A stretch of DNA of 64,000 nucleotides from Escherichia coli (GTDB lineage: Bacteria; Pseudomonadota; Gammaproteobacteria; Enterobacterales; Enterobacteriaceae). The notes beneath the pieces were generated by a model that had not been told where the DNA came from, did not search any database, and saw only the letters and a program-made list of their open reading frames with translations. The stretch lies in assembly GCF_003019035.1 (NCBI RefSeq), contig NZ_CP027447.1; one strand, written 5' to 3'. The position numbers were made by a program, and so were the translations under genes. The stretch's first letter is position 1; the number at the start of each line of letters is the position of its first letter. Below, one piece after another: positions 46,772 to 47,190 of the stretch.

Positions 46772-46794
46772 TTATCCACTATTCCTGTGGATAA
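46772..46794. promoter_or_regulatory. Pair of inverted DnaA-box-like sequences in the uvrB upstream region
   Basis: ttatccact ... tgtggataa (TTATCCACA-type) read directly. Confidence 0.55.
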
Positions 46795-47096
46795 CCATGT
46801 GTATTAGAGTTAGAAAACACGAGGCAAGCGAGAGAATACGCGGCTTGCACGCGAATTGGCGTTAAAGACGGCTCAAAGAAATATCTTTTATTTTTTAACT
46901 GGTTAGATAATTGCAATGGCAGTCACTGAAGAGGCATCTCTTGCCATAAAACTGTCATCACTCATCTTGACAAATGTTAAAAAAGCCGTTGCTTTGGGGA
47001 TAACCCGGTAAGGCCGGAGTTTTATCTCGCCACAGAGTAAATTTTGCTCATGATTGACAGCTGAGTTTACGCTGTAACAGAAATATTATGGTGAGA

Positions 47097-47116
47097 AACT
47101 GTTTTTTTATCCAGTA
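47097..47116. promoter_or_regulatory. LexA (SOS) box overlapping a uvrB promoter
   Basis: CTG-N10-CAG (aactgtttttttatccagta) immediately followed by a tataat -10 hexamer; uvrB is an SOS gene. Confidence 0.8.
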
Positions 47117-47190
47117 TAATTTGTTGGCATAATTAAGTACGACGAGTAAAATTACATACCTGCCCGCCCAACTCCTTCAGGTAGCGACTC

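Follow-up and report, generated by a model that had tools for sequence, protein, structure and literature searches.

We concluded that the spacer between bioD and uvrB on the Escherichia coli chromosome carries two known and largely separate devices, the DnaA-reactivating element DARS1 and the uvrB promoter cluster with its LexA operator. We give this joint reading, in which an inverted pair of DnaA boxes plus a third box is DARS1 and a LexA box occupies uvrB promoter P2, a probability of roughly 0.93; the feature is real and already known. Four extrinsic regulators of the DnaA ATP/ADP cycle are known, DARS1 among them, and the LexA box of uvrB belongs to the founding SOS operators. The first-pass annotation had proposed a uvrB control region that combined inverted DnaA-type boxes with an SOS box, a reading that was right but incomplete, in that the DnaA boxes primarily make up DARS1. 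The locus is a positive control: a reading of raw sequence found two textbook regulatory elements, and nothing new follows from finding them again.

The bioD–uvrB spacer in E. coli

The window (the whole 64-kb stretch of DNA analysed) is E. coli chromosome. A 601-bp query over the region found matches in 5,424 of 5,426 complete E. coli genomes, and the annotation places bioD and uvrB at the matched site. The two genes are separated by a spacer of 578 bp:

45929–46612, + strand: bioD (dethiobiotin synthase), the upstream neighbour; open reading frame, annotated under the genome match and in MG1655
47191–49212, + strand: uvrB coding sequence, 673 amino acids; open reading frame, annotated under the genome match and in MG1655

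The RefSeq annotation of MG1655, checked at this locus for DARS1 and promoters, holds only bioD and uvrB, and an Rfam scan over all 64 kb gave no RNA family hit in the bioD–uvrB spacer. The same scan annotated a cpoB/ybgF thermometer at 13788–13926, a seven-tRNA cluster with RtT at 14853–15653, and a Moco riboswitch upstream of the moa operon at 50423–50567.

Positions 46766–46910 were 100% identical to MG1655, and all 12 single-nucleotide differences in the spacer fell elsewhere. The 56-bp DARS1 core was identical in 5,421 of the 5,424 E. coli genomes. The spacer as a whole was at least 99% identical to the window in only 452 genomes. A 76-bp segment holding P2 and the LexA box reached that level in 437, and 4,985 lay in the 95–99% band, where the sampled rows stood at 97.4% with two mismatches. 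Of the 5,429 sites at which the spacer matched, two were on records typed as plasmids.

DARS1 core

A mismatch scan for DnaA boxes, together with conservation and the literature, gave the following features for DARS1:

46772–46780, + strand: DnaA box I, TTATCCACT, one mismatch, orientation opposite to boxes II and III (mismatch scan)
46786–46794, − strand: DnaA box II, TTATCCACA, perfect consensus, 5 bp from box I (mismatch scan)
46798–46806, − strand: DnaA box III, TAATACACA, two mismatches, 3 bp past box II and in the same orientation as box II (mismatch scan)
46807–46850, no strand: flanking (stimulatory) region, from conservation and literature, limits approximate
46810–46818: candidate degenerate box III', GTTAGAAAA, in the flank
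46826–46846: conserved block AAGCGAGAGAATACGCGGCTTG in the flank, from conservation across Enterobacterales

The inverted DnaA-type boxes first noticed at 46772–46794 were borne out. This interval reads TTATCCACT-attcc-TGTGGATAA, that is, box I on the + strand, 5 bp, and box II on the − strand, and the pair forms a 9-bp perfect inverted repeat (GTTATCCAC/GTGGATAAC). In the published definition, a DARS core consists of an inverted box I, a 5-bp space, box II and box III; the signature of DARS1 is a box II with the complete consensus, separated by 5 bp from box I, and its location in the literature is between bioD and uvrB, upstream of uvrB. We found all of these features at the locus: orientations +, − and − for boxes I, II and III, spacings of 5 bp and 3 bp, a complete-consensus box II, the bioD–uvrB location, and a sequence identical to the characterised K-12 element. 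Because this I-5-II-3-III geometry at bioD–uvrB equals that of the published DARS core, we identified the locus as DARS1. A published ChIP-seq table gives the DARS1 double box as TAATACACAtggTTATCCACA with a 3-bp gap and lists cTAATACACAtggTTATCCACAg for DARS1; the double box is the reverse complement of 46786–46806. Wurihan 2018 calls box II DnaA-box6, and it is the main operator through which uvrB promoter P3 is repressed.

The perfect box TTATCCACA occurred once in the 64-kb window, and boxes I and II formed its sole pair of DnaA boxes with at most one mismatch within 30 bp of each other. Such a convergent pair appeared in only 3 of 300 windows simulated with a first-order Markov model. Single one-mismatch boxes were common in the window (23 observed, 12.8 expected). 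The DARS1 reading is supported by the sequence and its geometry, by the statistics, by identity to MG1655 and by conservation, and nothing in the sequence contradicts an explanation by DARS1 plus the uvrB promoter cluster.

According to published work, ADP release from ADP-DnaA and stimulated initiation were observed with a K-12 sequence identical to the core in the window. ADP-DnaA would bind the perfect box II first, and from there recruit further protomers, head-to-head on box I and head-to-tail on box III. A Gln208-dependent head-to-head AAA+ contact on boxes I and II would then loosen the ADP, and the apo-DnaA would dissociate and rebind ATP, which restores ATP-DnaA for the initiation of replication. 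DnaA bound to box III itself releases no ADP, and DiaA stimulates the DARS1 reaction. The minimal DARS1 is given as 101 bp in secondary citations. One source requires a 42-bp flank past the last box for full ADP release, another speaks of an approximately 50-bp regulatory region that enhances activity, and a box III' is reported to flank box III. Deletion of DARS1 leads to larger cells with fewer origins and costs fitness in the mouse gut, and a DnaA ChIP-seq signal has been recorded at DARS1 in vivo. Protein binding, ADP release and promoter effects at this locus are taken from that literature.

Conservation beyond E. coli

We scanned species-representative genomes with the pattern TTATCCAC-N7-GTGGATAA, and the figures that follow are among the matches listed. 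The inverted-box pattern had at least 123 instances, mostly in Gamma- and Betaproteobacteria, and most of those listed did not adjoin uvrB. In 79 of the 123, TGTG stood exactly 3 nt past one arm, and never past both; any other offset of TGTG was seen at most seven times among the 246 flanks. In Citrobacter, Enterobacter, Photorhabdus, an Enterobacterales metagenome-assembled genome, two Vibrio and two Shewanella, the core was found 374–609 bp upstream of uvrB and had box III at the end nearer the gene. DARS-like sequences beside uvrB in V. cholerae have been reported previously. Strong LexA boxes (19–24 bits) were found 58–114 bp upstream of uvrB in four other Enterobacterales, and one Vibrio had a LexA box of 16.9 bits there; the two Shewanella examined had no LexA box upstream of uvrB.

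Among the matches listed, the I-5-II-3-III core was also present in Pseudomonas, Xanthomonas, Vibrio, Nitrosomonas, Neisseriaceae and Burkholderiales. Legionella rowbothamii had at least six DARS-like cores and L. nagasakiensis at least eight, each with box III at +3 and with a further TGTGGATAWC box about 105 bp away on the box-I side. These copies were intergenic, beside unrelated genes (a MerR regulator, an SDR, a transposase); they shared no neighbouring gene and had no Rfam match. From their sequence they look like a multi-copy DnaA-box module, and a search of the literature gave no report of DARS in Legionella.

A metagenome scan with a DARS1-specific pattern yielded at least 66 distinct upstream regions linked to uvrB, which were selected for the core motif and include many close relatives. 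We aligned 40 Enterobacterales sequences with pairwise identities below 90%. Apart from the 21-mer used for selection, the alignment showed conservation of box I and of the flank at 46806–46818 and 46826–46846; box I was 100% conserved though it lay outside the search pattern. The LexA box with its TATAAT and both P1 hexamers were conserved as well. In other Enterobacterales, box III and the flank were retained, as was CTG..ATCCAGT of the LexA box.

LexA box and uvrB promoters

The cluster of uvrB promoters P1, P2 and P3 with its LexA operator is said to have been described by Sancar in 1982, van den Berg in 1985 and Arikan in 1986, and dual control of uvrB by LexA and DnaA reportedly goes back to van den Berg in 1985. 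We located the cluster as follows:

47097–47116, no strand: LexA (SOS) box AACTGTTTTTTTATCCAGTA (CTG-N10-CAG), which fills the P2 spacer (sequence and weight matrix)
47091–47120, + strand: promoter P2, −35 GTGAGA at 47091–47096, 18-bp spacer, −10 TATAAT at 47115–47120 (consensus scan)
47124–47152, + strand: promoter P1, −35 TTGGCA at 47124–47129, 17-bp spacer, −10 TAAAAT at 47147–47152 (consensus scan)
46770–46830, + strand: promoter P3, approximate, overlapping DARS1, placed from secondary citations in the literature

The claim of an SOS box fused to a TATAAT hexamer proved exact. Positions 47097–47120 read AACTGTTTTTTTATCCAGTATAAT, and the last two bases of the LexA 20-mer are the first two of TATAAT. 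The palindrome itself, CTGTTTTTTTATCCAG at 47099–47114, has the form CTG-N10-CAG with A or T at nine of the ten central bases. The 20-mer overlaps core promoter elements and ends 8 bp before the −35 of P1. We scored it with a weight matrix of 26 E. coli SOS boxes, uvrB being excluded to avoid circularity. On this matrix the uvrB site scored 23.3 bits (training sites 13.2–27.0, median 20.0), the next-best 20-mer in the 64-kb window scored 11.3 bits, and the highest score across 100 simulated windows was 18.6. Scores below threshold, which would have refuted the first-pass annotation, were thus not what the matrix gave. The looser pattern CTGT-N8-ACAG with one mismatch was not enriched in the window (16 found, 18.4 expected).

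Comparison with the known uvrB promoters agreed with this placement, as the literature puts the LexA box between the −35 and −10 of uvrBp2 and its sequence is identical to the published box. The LexA 20-mer, the P2 −10 and both P1 hexamers are identical to the K-12 and published sequences. The P2 −35 is GTGAGA in the window versus GTGATG in MG1655 (positions 47095–47096 differ), the window carrying the minority allele. Judging from the hexamers, transcription from P1 is expected to start about 31 nt before the uvrB ATG. A LexA dimer on 47097–47116 would cover the P2 spacer and −10 and adjoin the P1 −35, holding uvrB at a basal level; on DNA damage, RecA-stimulated self-cleavage of LexA would derepress uvrB. 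LexA binding and derepression on DNA damage at uvrB are supported by published footprint and reporter data, and Wurihan 2018 reported DnaA and LexA footprints across the region with tight LexA binding to the main box.

Additional LexA boxes 2–4 of Wurihan 2018 were considered and rejected in our scan: all other CTG-anchored 20-mers in the spacer scored below 0 bits, and the putative LexA site over DARS1 (46783–46802) scored −8.7 bits. Given these negative scores, we regard any action of LexA at DARS1 as doubtful. The sole DnaA overlap at P2 was a weak DnaA-like 9-mer with two mismatches, TTATCCAGT, at 47107–47115 inside the LexA box. At DARS1, no sigma-70 hexamer pair that could be P3 was recognisable in the consensus scan; to name TGGATA-17-TAGAAA (46788–46816) as its hexamers would be a guess.

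Repression, termination and chance as alternatives

The DnaA boxes had been read at first as part of the uvrB promoter control, and an alternative to DARS1 would take that further, making the inverted pair primarily a uvrB-repressing operator with no role in the DnaA nucleotide cycle. Several published results speak for repression: DnaA footprints the site, uvrB is listed among negatively regulated DnaA targets, mutation of the perfect box raised expression from P3-lacZ 5.9-fold (Wurihan 2018), uvrB mRNA rose more than 3-fold in dnaA(A345S), and derepression was additive in lexA and dnaA mutants (Wurihan 2018). The boxes, however, lie about 420 bp upstream of uvrB at P3, a promoter that gives only ~20% of the activity of the cluster, and not at the main SOS-controlled promoters. 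Dual control as such is published (van den Berg 1985; Wurihan 2018), and its LexA part was exact, but its DnaA part concerns mostly the minor P3. Moreover, repression needs no exact I-5-II-3-III geometry, yet this geometry recurs in 79 of the 123 listed instances, mostly away from uvrB, and is common to DARS2; ADP release and initiation phenotypes have also been published for DARS1 DNA. ADP release from DnaA accounts for the head-to-head arrangement and the 5-bp spacing; promoter repression does not. We therefore consider a purely repressive operator very unlikely. What the early reading had missed was the DARS1 core and its third box, TAATACACA; that DnaA binds the boxes and represses P3 stands, according to the literature. 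Repression and the DARS1 role are compatible, and what we reject is repression as the primary or sole role. The weak, far-upstream P3 would lie within DARS1, and because of this DnaA on DARS1 would also repress P3, which is the published 'dual control'.

The 9-bp inverted repeat could instead act as an RNA hairpin, a terminator or attenuator for read-through from the bio genes or for P3 transcripts. A terminator scan did flag GTTATCCAC-7-GTGGATAAC followed by CATGTGTATT, and the RNA fold reached −16.5 kcal/mol (z-score −2.9). Nevertheless, the tail CAUGUGUAUU has no U run and the stem has nine pairs of which four are GC, unlike an intrinsic terminator; each arm of the hairpin is an exact DnaA box; conservation also covers box III and the flank, which lie outside the hairpin; bioD ends 160 bp upstream with its own stronger hairpin at 46621–46678; and published footprints and ChIP place protein on duplex DNA. 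With no U tract and with conservation that extends beyond the hairpin, we rejected the terminator as scarcely credible. The hairpin beside bioD, directly after its stop codon, is a 16-nt inverted repeat, 94% complementary around a 26-nt loop region and without a T tract; it folds at −20.9 kcal/mol (z-score −2.5) and could be a 3' structure of the bio operon.

That the motifs are chance matches without function has next to no probability: one-mismatch DnaA boxes and CTGT-N8-ACAG sites are indeed frequent enough in the window, but the convergent pair was rare in simulation, the LexA score exceeded the maximum from 100 simulated windows by 4.7 bits, and neither element varies appreciably across E. 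coli and both are conserved in Enterobacterales, which already refutes it.

A fourth DnaA box downstream of DARS1

Further DnaA-box sequence and conserved blocks lay between DARS1 and P2:

46995–47003, − strand: fourth DnaA box, TTATCCCCA, outside the minimal DARS1, 209 bp from box II (mismatch scan)
46966–46982, no strand: conserved block CTTGACAAATGTTAAAA, 90–100% column conservation in the 40 Enterobacterales sequences

The fourth box TTATCCCCA was invariant in five Enterobacterales genomes, at 209–211 bp from box II. All 66 distinct metagenomic uvrB-linked regions listed had a − strand DnaA box at 207–211 bp from box II, and the distance was exactly 209 bp in 55; three of the 66 regions had GGTGGATAA or AGTGGATAA in place of TGGGGATAA. 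The spacer between box II and the fourth box remained at 186–189 nt, though its identity to E. coli drops to 61%, and the distance from box II to the ATG ranged from 350 to 495 bp in the listed regions, a variation of 145 bp. A distance of 209 bp corresponds to about 20 helical turns, which would put the fourth box on the same face of the helix as box II. The centre of the published DnaA ChIP-seq peak named 'DARS1' (MG1655 813,331, window 46996) falls on the fourth box, about 200 bp downstream of the DARS1 core and not on the core. Wurihan 2018 counted potential DnaA boxes between P2 and P3, and we found no statement on the phasing of the fourth box in the accessible literature.

From the spacing we raise, as an idea that is probably wrong but worth stating, that the functional DARS1 unit of Enterobacterales in vivo could be larger than the 101-bp minimal element, through a DnaA–DnaA loop between the core and the fourth box. 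If so, such a loop could serve to adjust ADP release, or it might link the state of DnaA to the SOS-controlled uvrB promoters, which lie another 95 bp along. DARS1 is kept beside uvrB from Escherichia to Vibrio and Shewanella, and the phase-locked fourth box may belong to such a coupling.

Block CTTGACAAATGTTAAAA contains TTGACA, for which the consensus scan found no partner −10. Within this block, TGTTAAAAA reads TTTTTAACA on the − strand, one mismatch from TTWTNCACA, and this relaxed DnaA box is 12 bp from the fourth box. The 40-sequence alignment also showed two more conserved blocks: TTGGGGATAACC at 46994–47005, and TTAGATAA..GCAATGG at 46903–46919, which lies between DARS1 and the fourth box. 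Directly past the fourth box, between P3 and P2, is a terminator-like hairpin, CCGGTAAGGCCGG followed by AGTTTTATCT (47005–47017). As a conserved attenuator of P3 transcripts this candidate was rejected, for its stem is not conserved in Citrobacter and Enterobacter, whereas GTTTTAT is.

Comparison with known systems

The element in the window corresponds to DARS1 of E. coli K-12 (Fujimitsu, Senriuchi and Katayama 2009; Sugiyama 2019) in locus, boxes, orientations and the 5-bp and 3-bp spacings. The core has no differences from K-12, and the 12 single-nucleotide differences are elsewhere in the spacer. DARS2, upstream of mutH, shares boxes I–III with DARS1, at identical spacing and with box I inverted. 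It differs in that its box II has one mismatch and in that it needs IHF and Fis sites in a regulatory region of about 400 bp, whereas DARS1 works without accessory proteins and with a flank of only about 50 bp. The double DnaA boxes at the nrdA, dnaA and rpoH promoters and at oriC resemble boxes II and III, being two 9-mers in the same orientation 2–3 bp apart; unlike DARS1, they have no inverted partner 5 bp away, and they act in transcription or origin opening and not in nucleotide release.

The uvrB promoter cluster differs from the known P1/P2/P3 arrangement in the P2 −35 hexamer described above. Its LexA box shares with the SOS operators of recA, sulA, uvrA and umuDC a CTG-N10-CAG palindrome over the promoter, and its score lies in the range of the family. 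It departs from the canonical operators in the left half of its spacer, which is the T-rich CTGTTTTTTT and not CTGTATAT, and in one arm, which is CCAG and not ACAG.
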